A stretch of DNA of 64,000 nucleotides from Acidobacteriota bacterium (GCA_003222535.1 QHWJ01000237.1:5641-69640); one strand, 5' to 3'. Positions 1,647 through 17,657 are shown, counted from the stretch's first letter. Notes: generated by a model from the letters alone, not told the origin. Made by a program: numbers and translations.

Positions 1647-1678
1647 GGTTCAGCGTTCACAGTTCAGCGTGTCCTTAA

Positions 1679-1770
1679 CCACGAAAACACGAAGCTCAAC
1701 GAAGAACGCGAAGAAGGCTTTGTACAAAGAATTCTCTTCGTGATCTTCGTTGGCTTTCGTGCCTTCGTGG
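1679..1770. repeat. Tandem inverted repeat of about 9-nt (C/A)ACGAAG-type units around a central palindrome
   Basis: Left arm CCACGAAAACACGAAGCTCAACGAAGAACGCGAAG, right arm CTTCGTGATCTTCGTTGGCTTTCGTGCCTTCGTGG, centre CTTTGTACAAAG (1718-1729). Confidence 0.8.
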
Positions 1771-1831
1771 TGGCTTTGTCGCTCTGCATTGCAGGTTCCG
1801 AGTTCCGGGTACGAAATGCTATCGTATGCGG

Positions 1832-3886
1832 ATGGCGACGCCAGGCAAACTTGATCGTTCTGCACGCGAAGCGCTCGGCGGTCCGGTGTCCGTCGTGGAG
1901 ACGGCGTGCCCGCTCGATTGTCCCGATGCTTGCAGCCTCGCAGTCACGGTGCAGCAGGGCAAGGTGGTCACGATTGACGGCTCGCACAGGAACCCGGTGA
2001 CGGACGGCTACATCTGCGCCAAGGTGCGGAAATTCGGCGAGCGCGTCTACGGGCCGGATCGGTTGCTGTATCCTGCGGTTCGCAGCGGACGCAAAGGCGC
2101 AGGCACGTTCAAGCGCGTGTCGTGGGACGAGGCGCTCGAGATGGTGGCCTCCCGGTTCGAGAAGGCCAAAGCGGAGACCGGCGGCGCCTCGATTCTTCCG
2201 TACTCCTACGGAGGATCCAACGGACTGCTCACCCAGGACAACATCGACGCGCAGCTCTGGCGTCGCTTCGGCACGTCGCGGCTCGCCCGCACGGTGTGCG
2301 CGGCGCCGACTGGCGCGGCGAACACGGCGTTATACGGCAAGATGCCGTCAATCACCTATCAGGACTATCCCGAGGCGCAACTGATCATCCTGTGGGGCGT
2401 GAATCCGTCCGCGTCCGGCATTCACCTCGTGCCGTACGTGCGCGAGGCGCAGAAGCGGGGGGCGACGCTCGTGGTGATCGATCCGCGGACGACGCCGCTG
2501 GCACGGTCGGCGAGTGTGCATCTCGCCGTCAAACCCGGCACCGACGTCGTCGTGGCGTTAGCCATTCACCGATACCTCTTCGCGAACGGGCACGCAGACG
2601 AGGCGTTCCTGCGAGCGCACACGCACGGGGCGGGCACGCTTTGCGAGCGCGCCGAGCCATGGACGTTCGAGCGGGCGGCCGGCGTCGCCGGCGTCGACCC
2701 GGCTCTGCTCGAACGGGTCGCCGAGTTGTACGCCAGGAGCACGCCCGCCCTCGTGCGTTGCGGGTGGGGCCTCGAGCGGAATCGGAACGGCGGCAACGCC
2801 GCGATGGCCGTCCTCGCGCTGCCGGCGGTCGGCGGCAAGTTCGGTGTCCGCGGCGGCGGCTACTCGATGAGCAACTCCGCGTCGTGGAACATCGACCGCA
2901 CGTGGATCGGCACGGCCGAGCCCGACACGCGTGTGGTGAACATGAACCATCTCGGGCGCGCGTTGACGGAGTACGACGACCCGGCCGTCAACGTGCTCTT
3001 CGTCTACAACTGCAATCCCGCGGTCACCGTTCCGGATCAGCGGCGCATCCTGCACGGTCTCGAGCGCGAGGATCTGTTCACGGTCGTCTTCGAGCAGGTG
3101 ATGACGGATACCGCGTTGTACGCCGACGTCCTGCTGCCGGCGACGACGTTCCTCGAAGGCTACGATTTCGCGAAGGGCTACGGCCCGATCAGCCTGGATC
3201 TCGGGAAGGCGGTCATCGATGCGGTGGGCGAGGCACGCTCCAACGCGGATGTCTTCGGCGACCTCTGCTCTCGCCTCGGCCTGTTGACCAGCGATGAGCC
3301 GGCGGGCGAGCTCGACCTGCTCGTCCACGTCCTCGACCGGCTGCCGGAGTCAATCGGCTCCGAGCTGCGCGCGGGCGGACTGCCGTCGCCGCCGTGCGGG
3401 TTTGCGCCGATCCAGTTCGTCGACGTCTTTCCGAACACGCCGGACCAGAAAGCCGATCTTTTCCCCGCCGCGCTGGATCCGGGCACGCCGATGGGCCTCT
3501 ATCGTTTCCAGCCGGACCCGGCGACCGACCGTTATCCGCTTGCGTTGATCTCTCCCGCGAGCGAGCGGACGATCAGCTCGACGCTCGGCGAGCTGCCGCG
3601 GCCGGACGTCAAGCTCCTCATGCACCCAGACGACGCGCGGGCGAGGGGGCTGGCGGAGAACGATCTCGTGCGGATCTTCAACGAGCTCGGCGAGGTGCAC
3701 TGCACGCTCACCGTCGCGCCCGACGTCCGGCCGGGCACCGTCAGCCTGCCGAAAGGCACCTGGCGCCGCAGCACGCGGAACAACACGACGGGGACGGCCC
3801 TCGTGCCGGACACGCTCACGGATCTCGGCGGCGGGGCATGTTTCAATGACGCTCGCGTTCAGGTCGGCTCGCTCGCGAACGCATAG
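1832..3886 (+). CDS. Molybdopterin-dependent oxidoreductase (DMSO reductase superfamily)
   Basis: CPLDCPDAC..CAK Fe-S motif, RLLYP, WDEAL, ADVLLPATTFLE, C-terminal HPDDA binding domain; start set at ATG 1832 after TATCGT. Confidence 0.9.
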   Translation: MATPGKLDRSAREALGGPVSVVETACPLDCPDACSLAVTVQQGKVVTIDGSHRNPVTDGYICAKVRKFGERVYGPDRLLYPAVRSGRKGAGTFKRVSWDEALEMVASRFEKAKAETGGASILPYSYGGSNGLLTQDNIDAQLWRRFGTSRLARTVCAAPTGAANTALYGKMPSITYQDYPEAQLIILWGVNPSASGIHLVPYVREAQKRGATLVVIDPRTTPLARSASVHLAVKPGTDVVVALAIHRYLFANGHADEAFLRAHTHGAGTLCERAEPWTFERAAGVAGVDPALLERVAELYARSTPALVRCGWGLERNRNGGNAAMAVLALPAVGGKFGVRGGGYSMSNSASWNIDRTWIGTAEPDTRVVNMNHLGRALTEYDDPAVNVLFVYNCNPAVTVPDQRRILHGLEREDLFTVVFEQVMTDTALYADVLLPATTFLEGYDFAKGYGPISLDLGKAVIDAVGEARSNADVFGDLCSRLGLLTSDEPAGELDLLVHVLDRLPESIGSELRAGGLPSPPCGFAPIQFVDVFPNTPDQKADLFPAALDPGTPMGLYRFQPDPATDRYPLALISPASERTISSTLGELPRPDVKLLMHPDDARARGLAENDLVRIFNELGEVHCTLTVAPDVRPGTVSLPKGTWRRSTRNNTTGTALVPDTLTDLGGGACFNDARVQVGSLANA

Positions 3887-4007
3887 CCACGAAACAGGCG
3901 AAACACACCAACCGAAAACCGCGACATCGTTCATGTCGAGCGCGAGCCTTTCACCCGAGCGTGCCTGGCGAACGTCGCCCGCCTCCGCGCGCCCGATGAT
4001 TCGGCGA

Positions 4008-4052
4008 GCTGCGGCGAGGCTCGCCAAAGCGCCGAAGGCGCGACGGCGGCAG
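4008..4052. repeat. REP-like palindrome (GCGCCGAAGGCGC core)
   Basis: CGCCAAAGCGCCGAAGGCGCGACGGCG hairpin between convergent genes. Confidence 0.55.
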
Positions 4053-4065
4053 CCATCAGCCATTC

Positions 4066-4365
4066 TTAGAACGCCTGTCCGATGCTGAAGTGAAAGCGGA
4101 TGCGGCGTGTCTGGGCGTTTCCGTTCACGAGCAGTCCGGGCATCGGATTGAGCTGATAGCCCACGTCGATGCGCCTGGCGCCAACCGGCGTCTGATACCG
4201 GAATCCGGGACCGATCGCGTACCGCAGCTCGCCCCGCTCGAAGGCCCACGGATCGGCCCACACGTTGCCGGCGTCGACGAACAGCACGCCGCCGAAGTTG
4301 CCACTCAGCATCGCGCGCAGCTCCGCGCTGAACGCCAGCATGCTGTCGCCGCCGATAGGGAGGCC
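4066..4365 (-). pseudogene. C-terminal fragment of an Omp85 (BamA/TamA) family beta-barrel
   Basis: PIGG..ELR..FVDAGNVW..LRYAIGPGFRYQTPVG..FHFSIGQAF; only about 100 aa with no credible start. Confidence 0.8.
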
Positions 4366-4558
4366 GATCCGCAGGCAACGGCGGAAATTGCGAGGGCGAC
4401 GAGGCCGAGAACGCGGACCTTGGCACACATGGCTGTGACGAGAGGACCATAACCCGTGCCGGTGCCTTTCGCCTTCTGCTTTCCCTTTTAACATCCAACT
4501 TGACTGACTTCTGACGAACTTTTGAGTCTCGCGTGCGATGACGCCTTATCGACCGCGC

Positions 4559-5488
4559 TCAATGGCGCGCCGTTTGCCGCGCCTCCGCAGGAGCGCCTGG
4601 CGGGACGGCCCCTCCAAGCACGCTGAACGCAACAGTGCCCCTGCCTTTGCGTTTGACGTCGTACATCACTGCATCCGCGGCGTCGACCGCTTTTGCCACC
4701 GACACGTCCGGATTCAAGAATGTGACGACTCCAATGCTGAAGCCAACCTCCAACTTACTCGAGGTGAGAGCCTTCTGAAGCCCGCGAGCGAGGTTCGCGA
4801 TAACCTCCTGCGCGCCGCGGTTGTCGGTACCGGGTAGGACCAGGGCGAATTCGTCGCCTCCAATCCGTGCCGCGGTGTCTGCCAGGCGCACTGAGTCTTT
4901 CAACACCCGGCCTGTCGTTCGCAGCACCCGATCTCCTTCGTTGTGACCATAAGTGTCGTTTACGGCCTTGAAGTTATTCAAGTCGACATAAGCAAGCGTG
5001 ACCGCGGTCTGGTGACGCTGTGCAAGTGCAAGGTCGTGCTCCAGTCTGTCCTCGAACGCACGACGGCCGTACAGTTCGGTCAAGCCGTCCGTCTCAGCCA
5101 GATGCCGCTGATGGAGAGAGCTGGCCCGGAGGGCAGTCAACAGCAAACTGGTGACGAGACAGAATGCGAATCGGATGAACGCGTTCCAAATCGGGATTGT
5201 GTGATGAGAATACTGGCTGTCGGAAACGATGTCTGAGATGTACCAGCCAACGCCGAAAATCAATGAGATGGCAACGCCCGCCCAACGTCCGACATACCAG
5301 GCTGCCACCGCGAATGGTCCGAGGTAGAAAAAGGAGACCGAGGCTGAGATTTCTTGTCCCGTGAAATAGTCCACACCTCCGATAACGACGACGCCGAAGG
5401 CTGCCAATCCCAACATCACGGCGCGAGCATGGCGATCCAGGGACCGATTCAAGAACGCTAGCGCACGTATCAGGCTTCGGCGGGTCAC
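4559..5488 (-). CDS. Membrane-bound diguanylate cyclase (GGDEF)
   Basis: N-terminal TM helices, TDGLT, FKAVNDTYGH, RIGGDEF; GTG 5488 overlaps the upstream stop (GTGA). Confidence 0.88.
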   Translation of the reverse strand: MTRRSLIRALAFLNRSLDRHARAVMLGLAAFGVVVIGGVDYFTGQEISASVSFFYLGPFAVAAWYVGRWAGVAISLIFGVGWYISDIVSDSQYSHHTIPIWNAFIRFAFCLVTSLLLTALRASSLHQRHLAETDGLTELYGRRAFEDRLEHDLALAQRHQTAVTLAYVDLNNFKAVNDTYGHNEGDRVLRTTGRVLKDSVRLADTAARIGGDEFALVLPGTDNRGAQEVIANLARGLQKALTSSKLEVGFSIGVVTFLNPDVSVAKAVDAADAVMYDVKRKGRGTVAFSVLGGAVPPGAPAEARQTARH

Positions 5489-7221
5489 CTCAAATTCACC
5501 ACCAGCGCAGCGCGGCGGTTGAGCCGGCGCGTTTCTTCGCGCGAGTTGTCGTACTTCGGCCGCTCCTCGCCGTAACTCACCGTGCGCAGCCGGTCGGCCG
5601 TGACGCCGCGGCTCACCAGGTAGTCCTTGACGGCGTTCGCGCGGCGATCGCCGAGGGCGAGGTTGTATTCGGCCGTGCCGATGCTGCAGGTGTGGCCTTC
5701 GATCTCGACCCGCAACGTCGCGTTCTCCCGCATGGCCGTGACCGCCTCGTCCAGCACCCGGGTCGCTTCCGGCCGCAGCGAGTAGCGGTCGAAGTCGAAA
5801 TACACGTCCTCGAATGTGTAGGTCCGCACCGGCGGCCGCGTCACCTGGATGTTGACGGTGTCGGACGCCGTCTTGTTGTCGGTCGGGCACGTCACGGTGA
5901 CCGTCACCGGCACGCTGCCTTCCTGCTGCGGCGCCGTCCACAGCGTCTGCCGTTCCGCCGGCTGCGCCAGCGTACCGATCGGTGCGGTCCACCGATACGT
6001 GACGGAGCAGCTCGTCGAGTCCTGCACGGTCGCGGTCACCGTGGAGCTCTTGCCCACCTCCACTGAACATGGATTGCAATCCGCTTTCACGGTCAGGTTG
6101 TGCACCGGCGCCGGCAGCGGCGGCGGGGGTGGCGGCGGCGGCGGCGGGGGCGGCGGCGGCACCCAGACTCGCACGCCCGGGTGATACCCGATCCGGAACT
6201 GCCAGTCGTAATAGTCGCCGAGGAGATCACCGGTGTCGGTGAAGCGCGTGTCGCGCGCCTTCGAGGGCACATTCCAGCTCGCACCGGCGCCGAAGAAGAA
6301 ACCTTTCTTCGACTGGACTGTAAGGCCGACGGTCGCCCGCGTGATGTGCTCCGTGTCGGATAGCAGCGGCGAGATGGTTCCATCGGTGCCGACGATGCGC
6401 GAACCTGTAATCGTCGCGCTGTCGCCCGACGGCACGTAGCCGTTCAGCTCGCCGGTGACCCGCACGATATTGCGGGATGGGAAGCCAATGCCGGTTCCCC
6501 AGCGGAACGCACCCTGGGCGGTATCGAAGCCGTCGGGCTTGCCGCGGAACTCGTAACCGCCGAAGCCGGCCCACTCGACCGTCCGCGCGAGCTCCTTGCT
6601 CGCGATCAGGTCCACCGAGACGTCGGCCTTGCCCGTGCCGTTGCCGGCGTCCTTGTCGGCGGTCGGCAGCTTGACCATCCCGCGCAGCGCGATCGCGGCC
6701 GGATTGAGGCGATACTCGGACCACAGGTTGAGCTTGGCGCCGGCGTAAAAGTCGCCGAGGTTATCGCCGGTCCAATGCTGGTTCACGCGCGGATAGCGGT
6801 CGATTACTCCGCCGAGGCTCGAGTCGTTGATGAAGAGCGGGTATGTGTCCCGGTCGATGCGCGTGTCGAAGAGGAAGGCGCCAAAGATCTCCGCGCGATC
6901 GCCGACGCCGACGCCGAACGTGCCGTCGAAGTCGCCGACGTTGGTGTACCCCTGCACCCAGTTCGTGCCGCGCCGATACCCGCTAACCGACCACCTTCCG
7001 CGGGGCAGCACTTCGGCGGTGGGCACAAACCACAACCCAGTGTCGCCGAAGAACGTCGTCGTGGCCGGTCGTGTTTGGTCCGCCGTTGCGGTCGACGAGG
7101 ACTGTGTTTGGCTGGTGGTGGGACTCTGCCCCGTGGATGTCCCTGAAGACCCTGTTTGTCCGCGGGCGCTCGCTGCTGCAACGAGCGCCAGCAGACAGAC
7201 CATGGCTGCGCGTCTTGCCAT
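5485..7221 (-). CDS. OmpA-family protein (beta-barrel, poly-Pro linker, Ig/PKD-like domain, OmpA_C)
   Basis: Signal peptide, long Pro run, VYFDFD..IEGHT..YNLALGDRRANAV..SYGEERP..NRRA. Confidence 0.9.
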   Translation of the reverse strand: MARRAAMVCLLALVAAASARGQTGSSGTSTGQSPTTSQTQSSSTATADQTRPATTTFFGDTGLWFVPTAEVLPRGRWSVSGYRRGTNWVQGYTNVGDFDGTFGVGVGDRAEIFGAFLFDTRIDRDTYPLFINDSSLGGVIDRYPRVNQHWTGDNLGDFYAGAKLNLWSEYRLNPAAIALRGMVKLPTADKDAGNGTGKADVSVDLIASKELARTVEWAGFGGYEFRGKPDGFDTAQGAFRWGTGIGFPSRNIVRVTGELNGYVPSGDSATITGSRIVGTDGTISPLLSDTEHITRATVGLTVQSKKGFFFGAGASWNVPSKARDTRFTDTGDLLGDYYDWQFRIGYHPGVRVWVPPPPPPPPPPPPPPLPAPVHNLTVKADCNPCSVEVGKSSTVTATVQDSTSCSVTYRWTAPIGTLAQPAERQTLWTAPQQEGSVPVTVTVTCPTDNKTASDTVNIQVTRPPVRTYTFEDVYFDFDRYSLRPEATRVLDEAVTAMRENATLRVEIEGHTCSIGTAEYNLALGDRRANAVKDYLVSRGVTADRLRTVSYGEERPKYDNSREETRRLNRRAALVVNLR

Positions 7222-7265
7222 TGTTGGTCGCCTCCAAAGTCGCCGTCAGCGATCGAGCGTGTCGT

Positions 7266-7526
7266 TCATTCACCACGATTCGTAGCCCCGCCGTCATCGG
7301 CGGCTTCGGGACCCGGCGTCGCGTCCGACGGGACGACGAGGCGACCCCTCCCGCCACGGCTGACCTGGCCGCCTTTCCGGCCTGCGTTGCGGGCTTCGTC
7401 TGCGGTCCACTCATGGGCCGTGCCCTTTTCGTGCGCCGCCCGCCCCCCTTTGCTCGCGATCTCCCGCTGCTTTTCGGCGGACATCGACGCGAACCCTCGT
7501 CGCTCTTTGCGTTCTGATGTATTCAC
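7266..7526 (-). CDS. KGG-repeat stress-induced protein (YciG/Con-10-like)
   Basis: RGFASMSAEKQREIASKGG..AHEWTADEARNAGRKGG; GGAGG RBS upstream. Confidence 0.9.
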   Translation of the reverse strand: MNTSERKERRGFASMSAEKQREIASKGGRAAHEKGTAHEWTADEARNAGRKGGQVSRGGRGRLVVPSDATPGPEAADDGGATNRGE

Positions 7527-7605
7527 CGCTAGGCCCTCCGTCTATTTACTGACACGGCATTCGAATCGCGTGCTCCCGTGCAGTACCAACGCTGCCCCAT
7601 AAGTC

Positions 7606-7621
7606 ATCAAAGTCTGTGCCC
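7606..7621 (-). promoter_or_regulatory. Putative sigma-54 promoter
   Basis: GGGCACAGACTTTGAT vs consensus TGGCACN5TTGCW (GA instead of GC at -12), about 80 nt upstream of the KGG gene. Confidence 0.4.
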
Positions 7622-7918
7622 GTCGGGACGTTTGGCCCTTTACCGTAAATGCTTGATTTAGTGACGATTTCGCGCGGGGTCGCGAAACACAGGGGCGCAG
7701 TGTTGCAGCAGTTTGCTACAGAAGGGCTGGTAAAGGTAGCGATTGACTGTCGAGTTTGCCCCTAACAGCCGGTGGTAGGGAATCTCGAGACTCGGAGGGG
7801 ATCTGATTCTGTTCGCCTGGCAGCCGAATGCCCTAAATTGCCCGTCGATCGGCAGACGTTGGCCAGCCGATTCCCCTTGGTTTGCGCGGGCTCTGGCGCG
7901 AGGCCTGGGAGCGGCGGG

Positions 7919-8254
7919 CTATTTGGACTGCTGCGGCACGTAACCAGGCGGCAGCGCGGCGCCGTCGCCGAAGAAGAAATCCTCCATGTGCTTGGCGACG
8001 AGATCCTGTGCTTCCTTCTGCCACGGCATGAGCCGGTACTCGTTGAGGATCATCTTCATGCGCTCCTCCCAGAGCTTCCAGGCATCTTTCGAGACGTGGT
8101 CGAAAATGCGCTGACCGAGCTCGCCGGGCCACGGCACCGAATCGAGGCCGGGCAGCTCCTTCTGGAATTTCACGCACATGACCTTGCGGCCGCTCTCGTT
8201 GCCGGCGGCGCCGGACGGGGCCGAGTGTGAGGTATGTCCGCAGGAATCAGCCAT
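7919..8254 (-). CDS. yggX: Fe(II)-trafficking / oxidative damage protection protein
   Basis: RKVMCVKFQKELPGL..PWPGELGQRIFDHVSKDAW..MILNEYRL..FFFG..GYVP. Confidence 0.9.
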   Translation of the reverse strand: MADSCGHTSHSAPSGAAGNESGRKVMCVKFQKELPGLDSVPWPGELGQRIFDHVSKDAWKLWEERMKMILNEYRLMPWQKEAQDLVAKHMEDFFFGDGAALPPGYVPQQSK

Positions 8255-8387
8255 GGTGCAGATTGTAGTGTATTTGCGTCCGGGACCATGTCCGACGCTC
8301 CCGGTAAGCGGGCTCCGGCGAAAAGCGGGCCGAATTCGCGAGTCGTTCCGCGCGAAGCGCGGCTGCTACGAGCCCGCGAGGCACGCC

Positions 8388-9716
8388 TCAAACGGGCGCC
8401 TCGGTGAGTACCGGGAATTCCGGATCGATGGCGAATGCGAGGCGCGCGTGCGCTGTACGCAAGGCTTGCTCGACGCCGGCTGCGCGATCGGCGCGCGCGA
8501 AAATAAATCCGAGGTAGCTCGCGCCTTCGGGCAGCGGCAGCAGCAGCTGATCCACCTTCGCCGTGATGAGGACGTCCTCCACACCGGGCGCCTGACGAGC
8601 GGCGTCGATGCCTTGCACGCCGCGGAAGATACCGCGCCGTGGAATCGGGATCATCATGACGCCCGACGCATCACTCTCGCGGCGCCACGCGCCGGGATTT
8701 TCGCCGAGCGCGTGACGCAGGAGAAGTTCCTCCAACGAGATGGCGGATTGCGGATTGGAGATCGCGGATTGGAGACGAAGCGCTCGCGCGCAGAGGCCGC
8801 CAATGGGGCGAGCCGCCACCTCCAGTACGAAGACCTCGGCCTGCCCGGATCCTGTCGACGGGTTCACCCGGCATTCCGCGTGAACGGGACCGTGATGGAG
8901 GCCGATGGCGTCGGCGGCGCTGGCCACGGTGGAAACGATCCGGGTCTGTACGTCCGCCGGGGCGGATGACGGGGTGACGTAAATCGTCTCCTCGAAGAAT
9001 GGGCCGTCCAGCGGGTCGGGCTTGTCGAAGATCGCGAGCACGTTCAACGCGCCGCGATGCAGCAGCCCTTCAACCGCGTACTCGCGTCCGGGGATGAAAC
9101 CCTCGACCAGCACCGTGTCGTGCGCTTCGTTGCGCTCGGCGCGAACCTCGCGCGTCCGCATGAGCGCGCGAAGGCGTTCGAGCGCCGCGCGAAACGTCGA
9201 CGGATCATCCGCGCGCATCACCCCTCGGCTCCCCGAGAGGGCCACAGGCTTCACGATGCACGGATAGGTCAATGGTGCCCTGTCAAGGGCTGAGGGCTGG
9301 GGGCTGAGGGCTGAGGACTGAGGGTCGATGGCCACTGGAAAGAACCACGGGACCGGCAAGCCGGCGTCGCGCAAACGTTCGCGCGTGAGCTGTTTGTGCC
9401 GCGCAATCGCCGCGGCTTCCGGCGGATGACCCGGCAGGCCGAACGCCTGCGCCACGCGCGCGCCGATGACCGTGGGCAGATCGCCGACCACCAGCACGCC
9501 GTCGATCGGGCGCGCCTTCGCCACCTGGACGATCGCGGCCACCGACGCGTCTTCGTCGTAGAACCGAATCGGGATTGCGTGGTCCTGCCAGGGATCCTCG
9601 ATCAGGTGACACCGATCCGTCGCGAAGACGAGATCCACCCCGAGCCGTTCGGCGGCTTCGCCGAATGCGCGCGTCTGATAGCCGGTCGTCGTCGCCAATA
9701 GAAGAACACGTGTCAT
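8388..9716 (-). CDS. ATP-grasp domain protein (L-amino-acid ligase-like)
   Basis: PCIVKP..SGSRGV, LVEGFIPGREYAVEG, HGPVHAECRV, LEVAARPIGG. Confidence 0.85.
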   Translation of the reverse strand: MTRVLLLATTTGYQTRAFGEAAERLGVDLVFATDRCHLIEDPWQDHAIPIRFYDEDASVAAIVQVAKARPIDGVLVVGDLPTVIGARVAQAFGLPGHPPEAAAIARHKQLTRERLRDAGLPVPWFFPVAIDPQSSALSPQPSALDRAPLTYPCIVKPVALSGSRGVMRADDPSTFRAALERLRALMRTREVRAERNEAHDTVLVEGFIPGREYAVEGLLHRGALNVLAIFDKPDPLDGPFFEETIYVTPSSAPADVQTRIVSTVASAADAIGLHHGPVHAECRVNPSTGSGQAEVFVLEVAARPIGGLCARALRLQSAISNPQSAISLEELLLRHALGENPGAWRRESDASGVMMIPIPRRGIFRGVQGIDAARQAPGVEDVLITAKVDQLLLPLPEGASYLGFIFARADRAAGVEQALRTAHARLAFAIDPEFPVLTEAPV

Positions 9717-9804
9717 GGCTCAGGGCTGAGGGCTAATGGCTATAGGTTGATGGTTGCTGGTGGTCCATTTCACCATTGCCATCAGCCATGAGCCATCGGC
9801 CATG
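9716..9804. repeat. Heptamer tandem inverted repeat (ATGGCTG/CAGCCAT type)
   Basis: GGCTGAG GGCTAAT GGCTATA GGTTGAT GG ... CCATTG CCATCAG CCATGAG CCATCGG CCAT. Confidence 0.7.
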
Positions 9805-9807
9805 TCG

Positions 9808-11292
9808 CTATAGCAGAGCAACCTGCTCTGCATTCGGCTCGGCTCAACAGTACCAAGGCTCGTTGAGATACGGGACGGTGGCGCGGTGGCGCGCGGGCCT
9901 CCCATCGGCCTGCCCTGAGCGAAGTCGAAGGGCCTGCTCTGAGCGGAGTCGACGAGTGGACGGAGTCGGAACGCCGGCGCGCTCGTGCGCGAGGGCGCTG
10001 ACCTGGTTGAACAGTGTCCGTCGATCCGCGATCAACTGCGTGCCCACCAACGCCATCGCATCGCGCTGCAGCGCGTCGACGCGAGGGTCGGGGTGGGTCC
10101 AGGGGTGCGTCAACGTCGCCGGATCGAACGCGCCGATGTGGGGGCGCATCTCGTCCACTGCCAGCAGCCCCGAGCCTCGGGGAATCAGCAGCCGGATGGC
10201 GAGCTGGATCGGCGACACGTGCTCGATGAGATCAAGGCTCTCGATCGTGTCGAGCAGCTCGCAGTACGACGCCAGCGTGAGCCACGGGTGAAACGCCACG
10301 AAGGTCGGCACCAGCGTCACCCCGGCCTCACGACACAACGCGACCGTCTGGAAGAAATCCGCGCGCGTGTGCCCCTTGCCGAGGAGCGCCAGCACGCGAT
10401 CGTCGACCGATTCGATCGCGCTCGTCACGAACGCGCAGCCGGTGTCCGCCAGCCGGGGCGCCAGATCGCGGTGGCGCAGGAGGTGCTCGACCTTGATCGT
10501 CACGTCGTAGCTGACCGCCGGATACGCCTCGTGCATCGCCGACACGATTCGCATCGCGTGCGTCGGGCCGTTGAAAAAATCGGGATCGCCGAACGTGATG
10601 TGCTCGGCGCCCGCGGCGATCTGCGCCGCCACGTCGGCCAGCACGATGTCCGGCTGCACGACGCGGAACTGCCCCTGGTAGACCGGTACGACGGGACAAT
10701 GCCGGCAGAGATGAAGGCATCCGCGGCTCGCCTCGGTGTAGCCGACCAGCCGTCGCTGGCCATCGGGCATCTGCAGCGTCGCGTAGCGCGAGAGCGGAGG
10801 CAGCCCGGTGCGATCGGGAAGGCGGAAATGAATCCGCGGTAACGGACGACGATCGAACGCGGAGCCCGCAAAGCCCGCAGAGAACGCATCGCTTGGCGCC
10901 CTTTGCGCGCTTCGCGCTCCTCGTTCGCCCGCCATCGACCTCGCGACCTCCGCCAGATCCTCTTCGAACTCCCCGCCGAGCACCTCGTCGGCTCCGAGCG
11001 ATCGCAGCCAGTCCGCGTTGAGCGGCGCATACAACCCGAACACGCAGATCCGCGCCGACGGGTTCAGACGCCTGGCGGTGGCGATGATCGGCGCAGCCAG
11101 ACGCGTCGCCGTATGCATCGGCAGGTGGAAGCCGATGAGGTCGGCGGAGACGAGATTCGCCTCCTGCAGTCGTTCCTTCGCTGCGTCCACCGGCGCCACG
11201 TCCCATCCCGCCGCACGCAGCCACGCCGCAGCGGAGGCGAGGGCGAATGGTTGACGGCCCATTTCGTACGTGCTGATGAGGACCGCGAACAT
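9808..11292 (-). CDS. CUAEP-tail radical SAM selenoprotein (B12-binding-like N-terminus); UGA 9846-9844 read as Sec
   Basis: CLHLCRHC radical SAM motif; frame continues EPWYC-TGA-AEPNAEQVALL-TAG; SECIS-like hairpin follows; start ATG 11292. Confidence 0.85.
9813..9831 (-). promoter_or_regulatory. Putative bacterial SECIS hairpin
   Basis: GCAGAGCA-GGU-UGCUCUGC, a perfect 8-bp stem starting 12 nt 3' of the in-frame UGA. Confidence 0.75.
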
Positions 11293-11315
11293 GCCTAGTA
11301 TTGTAGACTCCGCGC
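11293..11315. promoter_or_regulatory. Bidirectional overlapping -10 boxes for two leaderless genes
   Basis: TACAAT (minus, 11305-11300) 7 nt before ATG 11292; TAGACT (plus, 11304-11309) 6 nt before ATG 11316; no RBS on either side. Confidence 0.6.
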
Positions 11316-12587
11316 ATGGTTTCACGCCGCCATCCGCCGGGACTCTACGTGCTGTTCTTCACCGAGCTGTGGGAGCGCTACAGCTTCTATTCGATGATGG
11401 CCATCCTGTCGCTCTACATGAACGAGGCGCTGCAGTTCGACGTGGCCCACGTCGGGCGCGTGTACGGCGCGTACACCGCCGGAGTGTACTTCCTGCCGCT
11501 CTTCGGCGGCCTGCTCGCCGACCGCGTCCTCGGCTTCAACCGGGCCGTGATTGCCGGCGGCGTGCTGATGATGCTCGGTCACCTCGTCCTTGGCGTCGAA
11601 TCTCTGCCATTTTTCTACGCGGGGCTGGTCCTGCTCGCCTGCGGCAGTGGCTTGCTCAAGCCGAACGTGTCGACGCTCGTCGGGAATCTGTATCGCGACC
11701 GGCCGGAGCTGCGCGATCAGGGATTCAACATCTTCTATATGGGCATCAACCTCGGCGCGTTCATCTCGCCGCTGACCGTCTCGTGGCTGCGGACGCACTA
11801 CGGCTGGGGACCCGCGTTCATGTCGGCGGCGGGCGCGATGGTCATCTCGCTCCTCGTATTCATCGTGTTCAACCGCCACGTGGCCGACGCGGCCGTCAAG
11901 GTGGAGGAAAACTCCGTGGAGGCGCGGGCGTTGAGCCCCGAGGAGGCGCGATCGCGCGTCCTCACGCTCGTGGCGGTCTTCGCGATCTCGATGGTGTTCT
12001 GGCTCGCGTTCTACCAGATCTTCTACACCTTCACGTTCTGGGCGCGGGACAACACGCTGACCACGATCCCGCCGGAGCGGTTCCAGGTCTTCGAGCCGCT
12101 GGGCGTCATCCTGCTCTCACCCGTCCTGGTTGCCGTCTGGAGGTGGCTGCAACGCCGCAACGCCGAGCCGTCCACGCCGGTCAAGATGCTGTTGGGCGTC
12201 GTGCTCGTCGCCATCGCCTTTGGCATGCTGGCGTACGCCGGCATGACCGGCGGCGATGCCGGGCGTGTGTCGGCTCAGTGGCTGATCTGGGCGAACGTGA
12301 TCATCGCGCTGGGCGAGATCTCCCTCAGCCCGATGGGGCTCTCGCTCGTCAACATGCTGGCGCCGCCGCGCAACCGCGGACTCCTGATGGGCGGCTGGTT
12401 CGCCAGCCTCGCCACCGGCGGCTACCTGGCCGGATACATCGGCGGCTACTGGGACCGGATGCCGCACAGCCGGTTCTTCCTGATGGTCACCCTTATTCTG
12501 ATCGCGACGGCCGTGCCGTTGAGCCTGATGACGCTGCAAATCAAACGGACCATCGCGCGAAGCCAGACTGTGCCGGTGGGACAATAG
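11316..12587 (+). CDS. POT/PTR-family proton-dependent oligopeptide transporter (MFS)
   Basis: HPPGLYVLFFTELWERYSFY (ExxER motif), GGLLADR, LKPNVS, FYMGINLG, GEISLSP. Confidence 0.92.
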   Translation: MVSRRHPPGLYVLFFTELWERYSFYSMMAILSLYMNEALQFDVAHVGRVYGAYTAGVYFLPLFGGLLADRVLGFNRAVIAGGVLMMLGHLVLGVESLPFFYAGLVLLACGSGLLKPNVSTLVGNLYRDRPELRDQGFNIFYMGINLGAFISPLTVSWLRTHYGWGPAFMSAAGAMVISLLVFIVFNRHVADAAVKVEENSVEARALSPEEARSRVLTLVAVFAISMVFWLAFYQIFYTFTFWARDNTLTTIPPERFQVFEPLGVILLSPVLVAVWRWLQRRNAEPSTPVKMLLGVVLVAIAFGMLAYAGMTGGDAGRVSAQWLIWANVIIALGEISLSPMGLSLVNMLAPPRNRGLLMGGWFASLATGGYLAGYIGGYWDRMPHSRFFLMVTLILIATAVPLSLMTLQIKRTIARSQTVPVGQ

Positions 12588-12590
12588 ACC

Positions 12591-13430
12591 ATGGCGCTCG
12601 AAGAGTACAAACGCAAACGCGACTTCAGGAAGACGCCCGAGCCGGAAGGCACGGTCGCCGCGAAACAGGCGGAACGTGAACGCTTCTTCTGCGTGCAGAA
12701 GCATCTGGCGACCCACTTGCACTACGATTTCCGGCTCGAGCACAACGGCGTCCTGTTGTCGTGGGCCGTACCGAAGGGCCCGTCGCTCGACCCGACGGTC
12801 AAGCGGCTCGCAATGAAAGTTGAAGATCACCCGATCGAGTACGGCGAGTTCGAAGGCGTGATCCCCGAGGGCTACGGCGCCGGGATCGTGATGCTCTGGG
12901 ATCGCGGCACGTGGACGTCCGAGACAGGGGATGTCGACCGGGCGCTGACGAAGGGCGACCTGAAGCTCACGCTGAACGGCTACAAGCTGAAAGGCTCGTG
13001 GGTCCTGGTGCGGACCGGCGGGCGCTATGCCCGTGCGCGAGGCGGCGGCGATCGATCGTGGTTGCTGATCAAGCACCGCGACGACTGGGCGGGTGATCTC
13101 GACATCACCGAGTTCGCGCCGCGCAGCGTGAAGAGCGACGGCGACTTCGAGGACATCCTCGCGGAGGACAACCCCGCGATCTGGCACACGAACCGACCGG
13201 CCAAGGGCGGCGAGACCGGTACGATGTTCACCGGGATCATCGAGCGCGCGGCCGCATTGAAAGCCGCGCGCTCCACAAAGGACACAAAGGTTACAAAGGA
13301 CACAAAGGTTACAAAGGACACAAAGGTTACCAAGGACACAAAGGTTGCGCGAGAATCAAAGAAAAAGGCCGTCCCCGCCAGCATGACGTCGAAGACCAAG
13401 AGCGGACGGAAACCACCAGGACAGAAGTAG
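12591..13430 (+). CDS. Stand-alone LigD 3'-phosphoesterase (PE) domain protein with repeat-encoded basic tail
   Basis: LEEYKRKRDFRKTPEP, VQKHLATHLHYDFRLE, SWAVPKGPS, EDHPIEY; no ligase or polymerase domain. Confidence 0.9.
   Translation: MALEEYKRKRDFRKTPEPEGTVAAKQAERERFFCVQKHLATHLHYDFRLEHNGVLLSWAVPKGPSLDPTVKRLAMKVEDHPIEYGEFEGVIPEGYGAGIVMLWDRGTWTSETGDVDRALTKGDLKLTLNGYKLKGSWVLVRTGGRYARARGGGDRSWLLIKHRDDWAGDLDITEFAPRSVKSDGDFEDILAEDNPAIWHTNRPAKGGETGTMFTGIIERAAALKAARSTKDTKVTKDTKVTKDTKVTKDTKVARESKKKAVPASMTSKTKSGRKPPGQK
13275..13346 (+). repeat. 4 x 18-bp tandem repeat ACAAAGGACACAAAGGTT (TKDTKV)
   Basis: Three identical units plus one with a single mismatch. Confidence 0.95.
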
Positions 13431-13436
13431 CTCTGC

Positions 13437-16430
13437 GTGCCCAGCGGGCTCTGCGTTGATCGTCGTCTTCTCGGACTCGCCGCGTGTGCAGCTCTGACGC
13501 TCGCCCTCGGCGGCGCTCAGGACTTCTCGTCCACGCGCCAGATCGATCTCACGCTGACCGAAGGCACATCGATGTCGGCGGCCGCGTCGCCCGATCGCCA
13601 GTGGATTGCGATCGATCTCGTCGGCAGCCTGTGGATCCTGCCGATGCGTGGGGGCGAGGCGAAACGAATTTCGCCCGAGCTGCTCGAAGCGCGTCTGCCC
13701 ACGTGGTCGCCGGACAGCCAGTCCATCGCCTTCCAGGGGTACGACGATGGGAGCTGGCACGTCTATGTGATCCGGCGCGACGGCGGCGATGCCAGGCCGC
13801 TCACGCGAGGCGAGTTCGACGACCGCGAGCCCGCGTGGTCGCACGACGGCACGCGCATCGCCTTCTCGTCGGACCGGTTCGGCGGCATCACGACGATCTG
13901 GGAACTGACGGTCGCGACCGGAGAGCTGCGGCGCGTCAGCACCCGGGACGGCGCGATGCCGAGCTGGGCGCCGAACGACCGGGAGATCACGTTCGTGTCG
14001 CGCGACCGGGAGCGCGAGGGCCCGGCCGATCGGCGCGACAGCGCGCCGGGGCTGTGGGCCGTCAACACCGAGGGCCGTGAGCGGCTCGTGATGGACGGCA
14101 GGCGTGACGGCATGCCGGCAGCAGCGGCGTGGAATCCCGACGGCATAGAGGTCGCGTACACGAGCGCCGGCGGTCATCTCGGCGTCAACGGACGCGCGCT
14201 GAGCGGCCGCGACGAGGACGTCTTTCCATTCCGGCCCCATTGGATCTCCCGGACCGAGGTCCTTTACACAGCCGACGGCCACATCAAGCACCGATCGCTC
14301 GTGCCCGGCGCCGCGGCCACCGTCATTCCGTTCTCCGCCAGCGTCTCGCTCCACCGCAGCACCTTTCCGATCGCACACCGCGTGCTCGAACCGGCCGAGC
14401 CGCAGCGGCTCGCCGGCATCGTGAACCCCGTCGTCTCGCCGGACGGCCGCACCATCGCCTTTACGGCGATGGGCGATCTCTGGATGCTGCCGGTCGGGGG
14501 GGATGCAGTGCAGGTCACCAACGATCCAGCCGTCGAGCTCGACCCGGCATGGTCGCCGGACGGGACGCGGCTCGCGTTCTCGAGCGATCGGGGCGGGCAC
14601 ATGGATCTCTGGCTCTACGACTTCCGGACGAACGTGATCACGCAGGTCACGCACGAACGCGCCGCGGTCTCGGGCGCGGCGTGGTCGCCGGACGGTTCGC
14701 ACATCGCGTACCTCGGCGATCGACGCGACGTCCACTCGGTCCGTGTCTCACCCGGTGATTGCCTCGGCGGCGGCGACAGGAGCACGAGTGCCCGAGAGCT
14801 TGGCCGGCCGACGTGGGCGCCGGGCTGCAGATCGGTTGCGGTCGGCTCGTTGTTTCCGTACTCGGATCGATACCGCGAGGGGCTGAATCAACTGCTCCTG
14901 TATTCGTTCGACTCCGGCTCCTGGTCCCAGTCCCTGATCTTTCCCCAACACTCGGCGGGCAATCGTCAAGACAACGGGCCGGTGTGGTCACCGAACGGCA
15001 CCGAGATGGTGTTCGTCACCGAGGGCAGGCTCTGGTCGATCAACGTCGACCAGGGCGGCGGCGCGATCGGGCCGCCCAGACCGATTGCCGACGACCAGCC
15101 CGAGTCGCCCAGCTGGGAAGGCGACTCACGCCACATCGTTTATCAGACGCCGAATGGCCTGCGCCGCATCCTGGCCGACGGCAGCCTTCCCGATCCGATC
15201 GCGCTCGACCTCACCTGGAAAGCGGCCCCGACACCCGGCCGCATCGTGGTCCACGCCGGCCATGTGCTGGACGGAACGATGGATGCGCTCCGCGGCGAAT
15301 CGGACATCGTGATCGAACACGGCGTCATTCGCAGCATCGAGGGTCATCGCGACGAGCTGCACGCGGGCGCCGTCGTGGACGCGCCCGCCGAGACCGTGAT
15401 CCCCGGCCTGATCGACATGCACGCGCATCTCGACGAAGGGTACGGCGGCAACTTCGGCCGCATCTGGCTGGCGTATGGGATTACCAGCCTGCGGATTCCC
15501 GGCGTCAACCCGCATGCCGGCCTCGAAGAGCGCGAGGCATTCGACGCGGGCCGGCGTCCCGGCCCGCGCGTGTTCCTCGCGGGCGATCCGCTCGACGGTG
15601 CTCGCGTCTTTTACCCCGGCGGCGTGTCCGTGACCTCAGACGCGCAGCTCGATCAGGAGCTGGATCGCGCATCGGCGCTCGGCGTCGATTTCTTCAAGAC
15701 CGACGTCCGGCTGCCCGATCGCCTGCAGAAGCGCGTGGTCGAGTATGCGCATGCGCAGGGCAAGCCGGTCACGTCGCACGAGCTGTATCCCGCCGTGGCG
15801 TTCGGTATCGACGGCGTCGAGCACCTGCGCGATTCCAGCCGGCGCGGCTATTCGCCGACGCTGAGCGCGACGAACCACGCGTACAAAGATGTGATCGATC
15901 TCATCGCCAGGTCCGGGGTCACGCTGACGCCGACCCTCGGCATCCAGGGCGGATTCCAGGCCCGTGCCACCGGCGACAAGACGCTGCTGTTCGATCAGCG
16001 TCTCGGTTTGTTTCCGCTGCCCGTTGTCGCGACGCTGACCGATCTCGCCGCGGCGCGCCCGGACCCGTTGCGCGATCTGGCCGTGAAGCCGTACGAAGCG
16101 GCGCTGAAAGCCATCTTCGCGGCCGGCGGGAAGATCATCGCGGGCACCGACTCACCTGTGGTGCCGTACGGCCTCGGACTCCATGTGGAGCTCGAGGCAT
16201 ACGTGCACGCCGGCCTGACGCCGTTTCAGGCGCTCCAGACGGCCACGATCAACGCGGCGCAGGCGCTCGGGCTGGGCGACGCGCTCGGGACGATCGAGCC
16301 GGGCAAGATCGCGGACCTGACGTTCCTCGGCAGCGATCCGCTCCTCGACATTCGCAACACGCGCGACGTGAAACGGGTGATGCGGGGCGGTCGGATCTTC
16401 GCGGTCAGCGAGCTTGTCACGAAGAAATGA
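13437..16430 (+). CDS. Secreted TolB/PD40 beta-propeller plus metal-dependent amidohydrolase
   Basis: Multiple P.WSPDG repeats; PGLIDMHAH, AGTD, QTATINAA, GTIEPGKIADL. Confidence 0.88.
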   Translation: MPSGLCVDRRLLGLAACAALTLALGGAQDFSSTRQIDLTLTEGTSMSAAASPDRQWIAIDLVGSLWILPMRGGEAKRISPELLEARLPTWSPDSQSIAFQGYDDGSWHVYVIRRDGGDARPLTRGEFDDREPAWSHDGTRIAFSSDRFGGITTIWELTVATGELRRVSTRDGAMPSWAPNDREITFVSRDREREGPADRRDSAPGLWAVNTEGRERLVMDGRRDGMPAAAAWNPDGIEVAYTSAGGHLGVNGRALSGRDEDVFPFRPHWISRTEVLYTADGHIKHRSLVPGAAATVIPFSASVSLHRSTFPIAHRVLEPAEPQRLAGIVNPVVSPDGRTIAFTAMGDLWMLPVGGDAVQVTNDPAVELDPAWSPDGTRLAFSSDRGGHMDLWLYDFRTNVITQVTHERAAVSGAAWSPDGSHIAYLGDRRDVHSVRVSPGDCLGGGDRSTSARELGRPTWAPGCRSVAVGSLFPYSDRYREGLNQLLLYSFDSGSWSQSLIFPQHSAGNRQDNGPVWSPNGTEMVFVTEGRLWSINVDQGGGAIGPPRPIADDQPESPSWEGDSRHIVYQTPNGLRRILADGSLPDPIALDLTWKAAPTPGRIVVHAGHVLDGTMDALRGESDIVIEHGVIRSIEGHRDELHAGAVVDAPAETVIPGLIDMHAHLDEGYGGNFGRIWLAYGITSLRIPGVNPHAGLEEREAFDAGRRPGPRVFLAGDPLDGARVFYPGGVSVTSDAQLDQELDRASALGVDFFKTDVRLPDRLQKRVVEYAHAQGKPVTSHELYPAVAFGIDGVEHLRDSSRRGYSPTLSATNHAYKDVIDLIARSGVTLTPTLGIQGGFQARATGDKTLLFDQRLGLFPLPVVATLTDLAAARPDPLRDLAVKPYEAALKAIFAAGGKIIAGTDSPVVPYGLGLHVELEAYVHAGLTPFQALQTATINAAQALGLGDALGTIEPGKIADLTFLGSDPLLDIRNTRDVKRVMRGGRIFAVSELVTKK

Positions 16431-16456
16431 ACGGCTCCGCGGTCGCACGTACAGAT

Positions 16457-16566
16457 CGCTCGTGGTGAGCTTGTCGAACCACGAGCAAACGGCTCATCAT
16501 CCGACAGGCCTGTCCTGAGCGAGCGGCTCATCCTTCGACAAGCTCAGGATGAGCGGTGTATCGAAG
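16457..16566. repeat. REP-like palindrome cluster (CTTCGACAAGCTCA family) between convergent genes
   Basis: GCTCGTGGTGAGCTTGTCGAACCACGAGC and GCTCATCCTTCGACAAGCTCAGGATGAGC hairpins. Confidence 0.8.
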
Positions 16567-16582
16567 CGTCACACCCGCCCCT

Positions 16583-17554
16583 TCAGCTCTCGCCCAGCAA
16601 CCGCCTGGAGAGCACGCTCCAGACGGCGTACGCGAGCCGCTGGCGATCGTGCCTCGCGATGTCGCTGGTCCAGAATTCTCCGCCCACCAGCTCGCAGTAA
16701 TCCGGCAGCCGGCCCGGTGCGAGCGGCTCCTTGTGCTCCATCGCGTACCGGGCGAGCACCTGGAGCGACGGCCATTTCATGTTGGTGATGACGACGTCGA
16801 CCTTGCGCCCCGAGGCCTCCTCGATGCGCGCCACCGCATCGGCCGCCGTGAAGCCGACCATGCCGCGCCCTTCGGTCAGCAGATTGGCGATGAGAATGAT
16901 CGGGCCTTTCATGGTCACCAGCGCCTCGGCGACGCCGCGGACGAGAAAAATCGGCATCAAGCTCGTGTAGAAGCTGCCGGGCCCGATGATGACGGCGTCG
17001 AACTCGCTGATCGCCGCCGCCACGGCCGGATAAATCGAGACCGGCGGCTCGAGCCAGATGCGCCGGACGAACTGCCCTGATGACTGCCCCGCATCGACCT
17101 CCACTTCGCCACGGGTCGCCGATCCGTCGCCGTATTCGGCGCAGACCGACGCCTGCTGCACGCTGACCGGCCACACGCGGCCGCGGCAGCCGAGCAGCGC
17201 GCGCAGCCCGTCGATGGCGTCGAGGAAATCGCCGCTGTAGCGCTGCATCATCGACAGCAGCAGATTCCCGCCGGTATGCCCGCCGAGCCTTGCATGCTCG
17301 AGCGTGGGGAGCCGCGCGAGAAGCACGCGGCGGGCCTCTCGACCGTTGCGCGACAGCGCGAGCGCGCACTTGAGGACGTCGCCAGGCGGCAGCACGCCGA
17401 GCTCATCGCGCAGTTGCCCGGAGCTTCCGCCGCTGTCGAACATCGTGACGACTGCGTTCAGGTGCAGCCAGGGATTGTGCTTCAACCCACCCAGCAGACT
17501 CGGCAGTCCCGTACCGCCGCCGAAGCAGCCGACGTTCACCTGGCGCAGTCGCAT
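16583..17554 (-). CDS. yvcK: YvcK/CofD-related UPF0052 protein (gluconeogenesis factor)
   Basis: FGGGTGL, DSGGSSG.LR, PPGD, GHTGGNL, IIGPGSFYTS; start uncertain (17554-17653). Confidence 0.88.
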   Translation of the reverse strand: MRLRQVNVGCFGGGTGLPSLLGGLKHNPWLHLNAVVTMFDSGGSSGQLRDELGVLPPGDVLKCALALSRNGREARRVLLARLPTLEHARLGGHTGGNLLLSMMQRYSGDFLDAIDGLRALLGCRGRVWPVSVQQASVCAEYGDGSATRGEVEVDAGQSSGQFVRRIWLEPPVSIYPAVAAAISEFDAVIIGPGSFYTSLMPIFLVRGVAEALVTMKGPIILIANLLTEGRGMVGFTAADAVARIEEASGRKVDVVITNMKWPSLQVLARYAMEHKEPLAPGRLPDYCELVGGEFWTSDIARHDRQRLAYAVWSVLSRRLLGES

Positions 17555-17657
17555 CGGGTTCACATTGTAGTCCGTGGTCCAGTGACGAAGCGTCGCCTCA
17601 ACCGCCGGGTCACGCGTCTGCGGGCGCACCGGCGAATCCTCATTACCAGGCATGCGT

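Follow-up and report, generated by a model that had tools for sequence, protein, structure and literature searches.

The window, the whole stretch of 64,000 nucleotides of an Acidobacteriota bacterium analysed here (GCA_003222535.1 QHWJ01000237.1:5641-69640), contains on its minus strand a gene encoding a radical S-adenosylmethionine (rSAM; SAM, S-adenosylmethionine) protein, with an in-frame TGA close to its 3' end that is read here as selenocysteine (Sec, U), and a putative selenocysteine insertion sequence (SECIS) downstream of this codon. The rSAM gene is followed by a gene encoding an ATP-grasp enzyme. The features of this region, counted from the first letter of the window, are the following:

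9808..11292, minus strand: coding sequence of a predicted CUAEP-tail radical SAM selenoprotein of 494 aa, with ATG at 11292-11290 and TAG stop at 9810-9808
10696..10719, minus strand: radical SAM cluster motif CLHLCRHC (C192-x3-C196-x2-C199), whose columns are invariant in the alignment
9844..9846, minus strand: in-frame TGA, read as Sec, residue 483 of 494, after Cys482 (TGT 9847-9849) and in the same column in the inspected loci
9811..9843, minus strand: predicted translated tail AEPNAEQVALL (GCC GAG CCG AAT GCA GAG CAG GTT GCT CTG CTA)
9813..9831, minus strand: putative SECIS hairpin, stem 9824-9831 with 9813-9820, loop GGU 9821-9823
8388-9716, minus strand: L-amino-acid-ligase-type ATP-grasp enzyme, immediately downstream of the rSAM gene

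Translated with TGA as U, the protein matches NF040546, the curated NCBIfam family "CUAEP/CCAEP-tail radical SAM (seleno)protein", with 615.4 bits (E 5.8e-185, cut-off 500); the match covers residues 15-503 of the protein and positions 2-467 of the 468 in the profile and runs through the tail. Pfam Radical_SAM (PF04055) is found with 49.1 bits. An in-frame GTG upstream, at 11325, is an alternative start, and the ATG at 11292 is favoured, since the profile match and the database entry both point there. The open reading frame (ORF) called with translation table 11, 9844..11325, ends at the TGA, and the database copy, which begins at the Met of ATG 11292, has 482 aa; 12 residues, U and 11 more, are lost from the annotation when the TGA is taken as stop, as an earlier note on this DNA had pointed out. 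With TGA as U the C-terminus reads ...EPWYC-U-AEPNAEQVALL. The minus-strand letters quoted for it in the earlier note are exact and only the range, 9808..9860, is one base short, the first codon, GAG, being at 9861-9859. Besides the three cluster cysteines, only C286, C482 and U/C483 are invariant in 30 aligned sequences. The structure model of the protein has a mean predicted local distance difference test score (pLDDT) of 86.5, with values below 50 at residues 460-470 and of 39-70 over the tail region, 461-494. The window copy shares with NF040546 the full-length profile match, the C-U-A-E-P tail, the radical SAM motif and the alternation of Sec and Cys, and differs only in a longer variable linker, which is no defining difference. 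This linker contains a tandem duplication, a 24-nt unit repeated 1.9 times at 9907-9952 (LRSEQALRLRSGQA), and the stretch is modelled as disordered (residues 460-470). The gene very probably encodes a selenoprotein of NF040546, and as such it is a further member of an already curated family and not a new family. The selenocysteine that the earlier note called hidden is hidden indeed from ORF callers, and it is already in the literature: the family is named among the few selenoproteins with a Cys-Sec (CU) motif, with structure and function "not well known", in 10.1101/2022.07.06.499078.

The phylum sample contains 401 genomes, and at a threshold of E <= 1e-50 the rSAM protein has matches in 71 of them, 68 above cut-off. 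Exactly one in-frame TGA is present in 61 of the 71 matches and none in the other 10: three are partial and end before the tail (G294, G021 and G265) and seven are full to the end. Among the tails of the window copy and of 30 loci, 27 read C-TGA-AEP and three C-TGC-AEP, and one is cut by a contig end. Among 80 loci of a named genome collection, 50 show TGA and 24 show TGC or TGT, and six are without the motif, some of them in a locus that is cut short. Homologues with Cys at the UGA column, which the earlier note proposed to look for, are therefore present both in the smaller set (3 of 30 loci) and in the larger (24 of 80). The Ala, Glu and Pro that follow the Sec column (A484, E485 and P486), the conserved AEP expected by the same note, are invariant in 30 sequences. 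Their codons, GCN GAR CCN, are fixed at positions 1 and 2 and vary at the third, where those of Ala and Pro take all four bases; variation restricted to the third position points to selection on the translated peptide. Decoding of the UGA at 9846-9844 as selenocysteine is strongly supported. Incorporation of Sec at this codon would be directed by the SECIS hairpin contained in the last 11 codons, together with SelB and tRNA-Sec, and the product would end C-U-A-E-P-N-A-E-Q-V-A-L-L.

The hairpin that the earlier note had described, perfect, with a GGU loop and beginning 12 nt past the TGA, lies at 9831-9813. In DNA it is composed of GCAGAGCA (9831-9824), GGT (9823-9821) and TGCTCTGC (9820-9813), which form 8 bp without mismatch, and as RNA it reads GCAGAGCA/GGU/UGCUCUGC, present in both the minimum free energy (MFE) and the centroid structures of RNAfold. 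Perfect 8-bp hairpins with loops of 3-8 nt number 34 per strand in the 64,000 nt of the window, with about 0.011 starts expected per 20-nt span, and by itself this one is only mildly improbable. Across the family the register is a 7-bp stem with the loop A-G-G-U-U. In the helix alignment, columns 22-28 pair with columns 34-40 in 87.8% of the cells and both sides have changed in five of the seven pairs; the covariation score is reached by none of 500 shuffles, and sliding the partner by 1-3 columns leaves pairing at 34-58%. The peptide encoded by the hairpin differs by lineage (E-G-Q-L-D-P, T-G-Q-L-A-P or A-E-Q-V-A-L). The bacterial SECIS (bSECIS) model, as given in PMC13188914, has a loop of 3-9 nt, a stem of 4-16 bp, a UGA-loop distance of 16-37 nt and, within the first two bases of the loop, a G with G or U after it. 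The hairpin of the window, with a loop of 3-5 nt, a stem of 7-8 bp, A-G-G/U and a UGA-loop distance of 19-20 nt, fits all these limits, and this fit and the covariation bear out the SECIS-like character proposed in the earlier note. It differs from the bSECIS model in being unusually near the true stop, ending 3 nt before the TAG, so near that the last seven codons appear to be shaped by the RNA, with paired amino-acid changes (E-G..D-P, T-G..A-P, A-E..A-L).

Most of 74 distinct TGA tails have retained a SECIS-type G as the first or second base of their predicted loop. When the 33 nt after the Ala-Glu codons are folded, an MFE of -7.5 kcal/mol or lower is found in 71 of the 74 distinct TGA tails and in nine of 27 Cys tails, with medians of -11.2 and -5.7, respectively (Mann-Whitney p = 2e-11, a value that is overstated since the sequences are kin). 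The hairpin is mostly lost where Cys replaces Sec, and this natural control supports its SECIS role.

The genome of the window contains selA (531.5 bits), selD (352.4 bits; contig C19:2733-3656, locus L012) and a tRNA-Sec gene with anticodon tca, all three scoring above their cut-offs. The selD gene shows one in-frame TGA, and SelD, selenophosphate synthetase, is likely itself a selenoprotein in this organism. In the phylum sample selA is present in 299 of the 401 genomes and, by hand cross-check, in all 61 genomes with the TGA form. G375, which belongs to the same family as the genome of the window, is the only rSAM genome where selA is not found (E <= 1e-70); it has the Cys form and shows no selB match at E <= 1e-60, as would suit a lineage in which Sec decoding has been lost and the enzyme retained. 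Six other Cys-form genomes retain selA. The selA tally includes the unpublished genomes G024, G049 and G152, and the tally of 81 genomes given below for the ATP-grasp enzyme includes G024; the conclusions are independent of them.

Some observations weigh against the Sec reading. In the assembly, a draft of 450 contigs, selB is split in two frames (contig C90:12378-14331, locus L006 about 1113-3066) and lacks about 37 codons after the G4 motif, including the G5 region. The 68-nt stretch folds weakly when taken alone (z = -1.37, with 18 of 200 shuffles folding equally well), and a Rfam scan of 9000-11500 gives no SECIS family and only chance-level matches (mir-766, P5 and snoRNA); the support for the hairpin comes from the comparison across relatives and not from the fold of a single sequence. 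Incorporation of Sec, strongly supported as it is, is inferred from these comparisons. The broken selB would suit an explanation in which the UGA is a working stop in this organism, the Sec system is decaying, and Cys482 is the last residue, with tail and hairpin left over as relics. Against it, a public 552-nt contig (X4, record 18) has 0 mismatches in both selB flanks and 112 extra letters at the break, an insert whose length and phase would bring selB back into frame, and two 333-nt contigs (X1 and X2) diverge from the assembly at the same selB base. These are Logan contigs and not reads, among which depth and coverage gaps carry no weight, and X4 is the only one to span both flanks with the additional 112 letters. 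On the contigs, the selB lesion is probably an assembly artefact, a local deletion in the draft, or a minority allele. With selA, selD (including its TGA) and tRNA-Sec intact, and with a tail and a perfect 8-bp hairpin that are undecayed, whereas Cys forms lose the hairpin, a working stop is very unlikely. Another explanation is that the hairpin terminates transcription or has some other function in the mRNA, and that the sequence downstream is conserved as RNA and not for translation. A terminator would be placed as the hairpin is, where the gene ends and 3 nt from the TAG, but no U-run follows the hairpin and the ATP-grasp gene comes next on the same strand. Variation in the nine bases that precede the stem is confined to third codon positions, relatives have in-frame Cys codons in place of the TGA, and the loop G is retained in most TGA tails, all of which makes a terminator extremely improbable. 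Selenocysteine at the UGA, as the earlier note read it, is supported by the same TGA in 61 of the 71 matches and by the covarying hairpin; of the four Sec genes named in that note, selA, selD and the tRNA-Sec gene (selC) are present, while selB lies in two frames in the assembly, with one contig bridging the break. The checks by which that note would have its reading refuted were all made, and the reading stood in each.

The gene at 8388-9716 encodes a protein with three Pfam domains of the L-amino-acid ligase (LAL) type, ATP-grasp_4, LAL_C2 and ATPgrasp_N (PF13535, PF18603 and PF18130), which score 106.6, 53.9 and 47.4 bits, all above their cut-offs. Its best PDB match is 3vot, the L-amino acid ligase BL00235 (5.4e-38, residues 20-407). 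In these domains it agrees with the BL00235/BacD ligases. A relative of this enzyme is near the rSAM gene at 1.5 kb or less in 12 of 30 loci, at 9 kb or less in 24 of 40, and at 2.5 kb or less in 55 of the 80 named loci, and the pair occurs in several different arrangements. In 16 loci with no ATP-grasp gene nearby, no conserved replacement neighbour was found. The ATP-grasp enzyme is present in 81 of the 401 phylum genomes, and a hand cross-tabulation of the 401 gives the following distribution:

rSAM and ATP-grasp both present: 68 genomes
rSAM present and ATP-grasp absent: 3 genomes (G034, G265 and G331)
rSAM absent and ATP-grasp present: 13 genomes, five of them less than 90% complete
rSAM and ATP-grasp both absent: 317 genomes

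In three genera, the one genome without the rSAM gene is also without the ATP-grasp gene (G086, G188 and G268). The 13 genomes that have the ATP-grasp enzyme alone count against a strict partnership, and the genomes are related and sampled, which overstates their independence, the counts being indications and not statistics. The ATP-grasp enzyme is likely a functional partner of the rSAM protein. The region of this gene also shows four tandem heptamer arrays. Two are within the ATP-grasp coding region, AGGGCTG repeated 5.6 times at 9286-9324 and GATTGCG repeated 4.7 times at 8739-8771, and are read as SALSPQPSAL and QSAISNPQSAIS. The other two are placed within or next to the spacer that separates the rSAM gene from the ATP-grasp gene, TCAGGGC/GGCTAAG repeated 3-4 times at 9713-9742 and GCCATCA repeated 3.7 times at 9778-9803, and one of them overlaps the ATP-grasp start codon.

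The second-best family for the rSAM protein is ArsL, NF040542, with 275.7 bits over residues 15-423, and each of the class B methylase models gives 35 bits or less. ArsL, which has a role in arsinothricin biosynthesis, is the nearest characterised relative of the CUAEP rSAM protein. Two reports describe ArsL as an enzyme that makes a C-As bond and whose cleavage of SAM gives a 3-amino-3-carboxypropyl (ACP) radical; As(III) is bound by the RCCLKC motif at its C-terminus, and ArsL without this motif loses the product and keeps SAM cleavage (10.1101/2024.02.01.577332; 10.64898/2026.04.29.721666). ArsL and the rSAM protein of the window are alike in the N-domain, the CxxxCxxC core, the linker and a short thiol-rich C-terminal tail. 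They differ in the tail itself, R-C-C-L-K-C in ArsL and C-U-A-E-P in the window, and in their setting: reports of the arsQML cluster come mainly from Proteobacteria, the CUAEP family is mainly acidobacterial, and the partner of the window protein is an ATP-grasp ligase, with neither arsM nor arsQ among 10 scanned neighbouring ORFs. In an ArsL-like mechanism the [4Fe-4S] cluster at CxxxCxxC would cleave SAM to the ACP radical, and the flexible C-terminal tail would offer to this radical a soft atom bound to Cys and Sec. Candidates for this atom are metalloids, for instance As(III) or Sb(III), and chalcogens. The product would be a 2-amino-4-(X)butanoate. The ATP-grasp enzyme would act in the same pathway, where it may use the new amino acid to form a dipeptide or may produce the substrate. 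BL00235 prefers Met at the N-terminal position, a preference that would suit a 2-amino-4-(X)butanoate, although this is a lead and not a result. Transfer of an ACP radical to a soft atom on Cys-Sec, preceded or followed by the ligase step, is put forward tentatively, as a possible activity of this enzyme.

Several points count against it. The NF040542 score is far under the cut-off of 450 bits; the RCCLKC motif is absent from the rSAM protein, whose tail is CUAEPNAEQVALL; the ArsM and ArsQ families have no match in the 10 picked neighbouring ORFs (within 330-17653); and the activity of the enzyme is itself inferred. The protein could equally be a selenoprotein with other chemistry, either an enzyme of the usual 5'-deoxyadenosyl radical type or a class B methyltransferase dependent on cobalamin, in which Cys-Sec would be a redox couple, an H-atom donor or a ligand of an auxiliary metal. 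This would agree with the B12-binding-like N-domain (PF02310 with 29.2 bits, just below the gathering score of 32.1), with the nearest solved folds, which are AprD4, OxsB, TsrM and MgmA, with the ArsL score far under its cut-off, and with redox sites as the usual place of Sec (PMC13188914). No ArsL structure was among the solved-fold matches. On the other side, ArsL is by far the nearest named family, with 275.7 bits against at most 35 for each class B methylase model, and the design of the protein is ArsL-like, with core, variable linker and thiol-rich tail, the tail of ArsL binding substrate and not a cluster. Chemistry other than that of ArsL stands at even chances, and the two are about equally likely.

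The neighbourhoods were compared by tblastn and with an ORF caller weighted by GC content at third codon positions (GC3); plain clustering of the ORFs of 41 neighbourhoods was spoiled by long shadow ORFs in high-GC DNA, the rSAM cluster itself reaching 30 of the 41. The other genes around the pair in the window are the following:

330-1646, minus strand: pyridine nucleotide-disulfide oxidoreductase, weakly similar to the 'N-terminal to SelD' family
1826-3886, plus strand: molybdopterin oxidoreductase of uncertain type, beside the disulfide oxidoreductase gene
7919..8254, minus strand: Fe(2+)-trafficking protein of the YggX type, encoded downstream of ATP-grasp (NF003817 114.5 bits, PF04362)
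11316..12587, plus strand: POT-family di/tripeptide:H+ symporter, divergent (TIGR00924 273.6 bits, PF00854)
12591-13430, plus strand: stand-alone LigD 3'-phosphoesterase (LigD-PE) domain protein with a KDTKVT repeat tail
13437-16430, plus strand: 997-aa protein with TolB-like PD40 beta-propeller repeats and an amidohydrolase domain

YggX is loosely associated with the pair: it occurs nearby in 17 of 40 loci, of which most belong to the same order as the genome of the window and one (L066) to another part of the phylum. A Nfu-type Fe-S carrier with Nfu_N and NifU domains (L053:8363-8977, L097:5410-5997 and 16 more loci) adjoins the rSAM gene in six of 40 loci and adjoins the ATP-grasp gene in 12 of 20 loci where the pair is unlinked or the rSAM gene is absent; in the genome of the window itself no Nfu-type protein was found with one query, which has no weight either way. 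The Nfu-type and YggX genes, the commonest neighbours of the pair, fit the needs of an Fe-S enzyme and are silent on its substrate. The POT transporter is weak as a third partner, with a relative in only eight of 40 loci. The disulfide oxidoreductase and molybdopterin genes are syntenic in part of the order (six and 12 of 40 loci, respectively), and LigD-PE, molybdopterin oxidoreductase, CofD-like and disulfide-reductase genes were rejected as partners, showing only order-level synteny save for one LigD-PE match (L057, same phylum). A DUF169 protein is near the rSAM gene in two distant lineages, adjoining it in L057 (10506-11240) and one gene off in L053 (7606-8304).

The rSAM gene is present in at least 599 loci across named genomes, and the protein search gives at least 8000 relatives. 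Among the matches listed, query coverage is 93-98%, the sequences end at the TGA and the names are generic, such as "YgiQ"; the named relatives are mostly Acidobacteriota (Vicinamibacterales, Terriglobia, Bryobacterales and "Acidiferrales"), the closest belong to Vicinamibacterales, with 68-74% identity, and scattered relatives belong to Chloroflexota, Methylomirabilota, Gemmatimonadota, Calditrichia and Entotheonella. The cultured Nonomuraea relative has the Cys form. Two loci labelled Bifidobacteriaceae (L123 and L180) carry this mainly acidobacterial gene, with 58% and 54% identity, possibly by an error of binning or labelling. In the literature searched, NF040546 is named only in passing, in 10.1101/2022.07.06.499078, and neither its accession nor its family name is in the main text of a 2026 review of prokaryotic selenoproteins (PMC13188914). 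No paper in the literature searched joins ArsL relatives with selenocysteine, and the parallel with the ArsL tail, the ATP-grasp partnership and the absence of the hairpin from most Cys forms were not found there.

Protein collections hold the CUAEP family cut at the TGA, and by this truncation many soil-metagenome records miss the part most likely to touch the substrate. The family is common, being present in 71 of the 401 phylum genomes. As a selenoprotein discovery the finding is ordinary; its value lies in mended annotations of truncated proteins and in giving access to the chemistry of an enzyme pair that is abundant. A broader proposal, doubtful at present, is that the Sec-tailed ArsL-like rSAM protein and the LAL-type ATP-grasp enzyme make up a pathway of two genes, widespread and mostly in soil Acidobacteriota, whose product would be a 2-amino-4-(X)butanoate or its dipeptide, X being arsenic, antimony, selenium or sulfur, and in which Sec would hold the radical-accepting atom and would have no redox role. 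If this is true, it would represent a new use of Sec and a new route of carbon-heteroatom bond formation.

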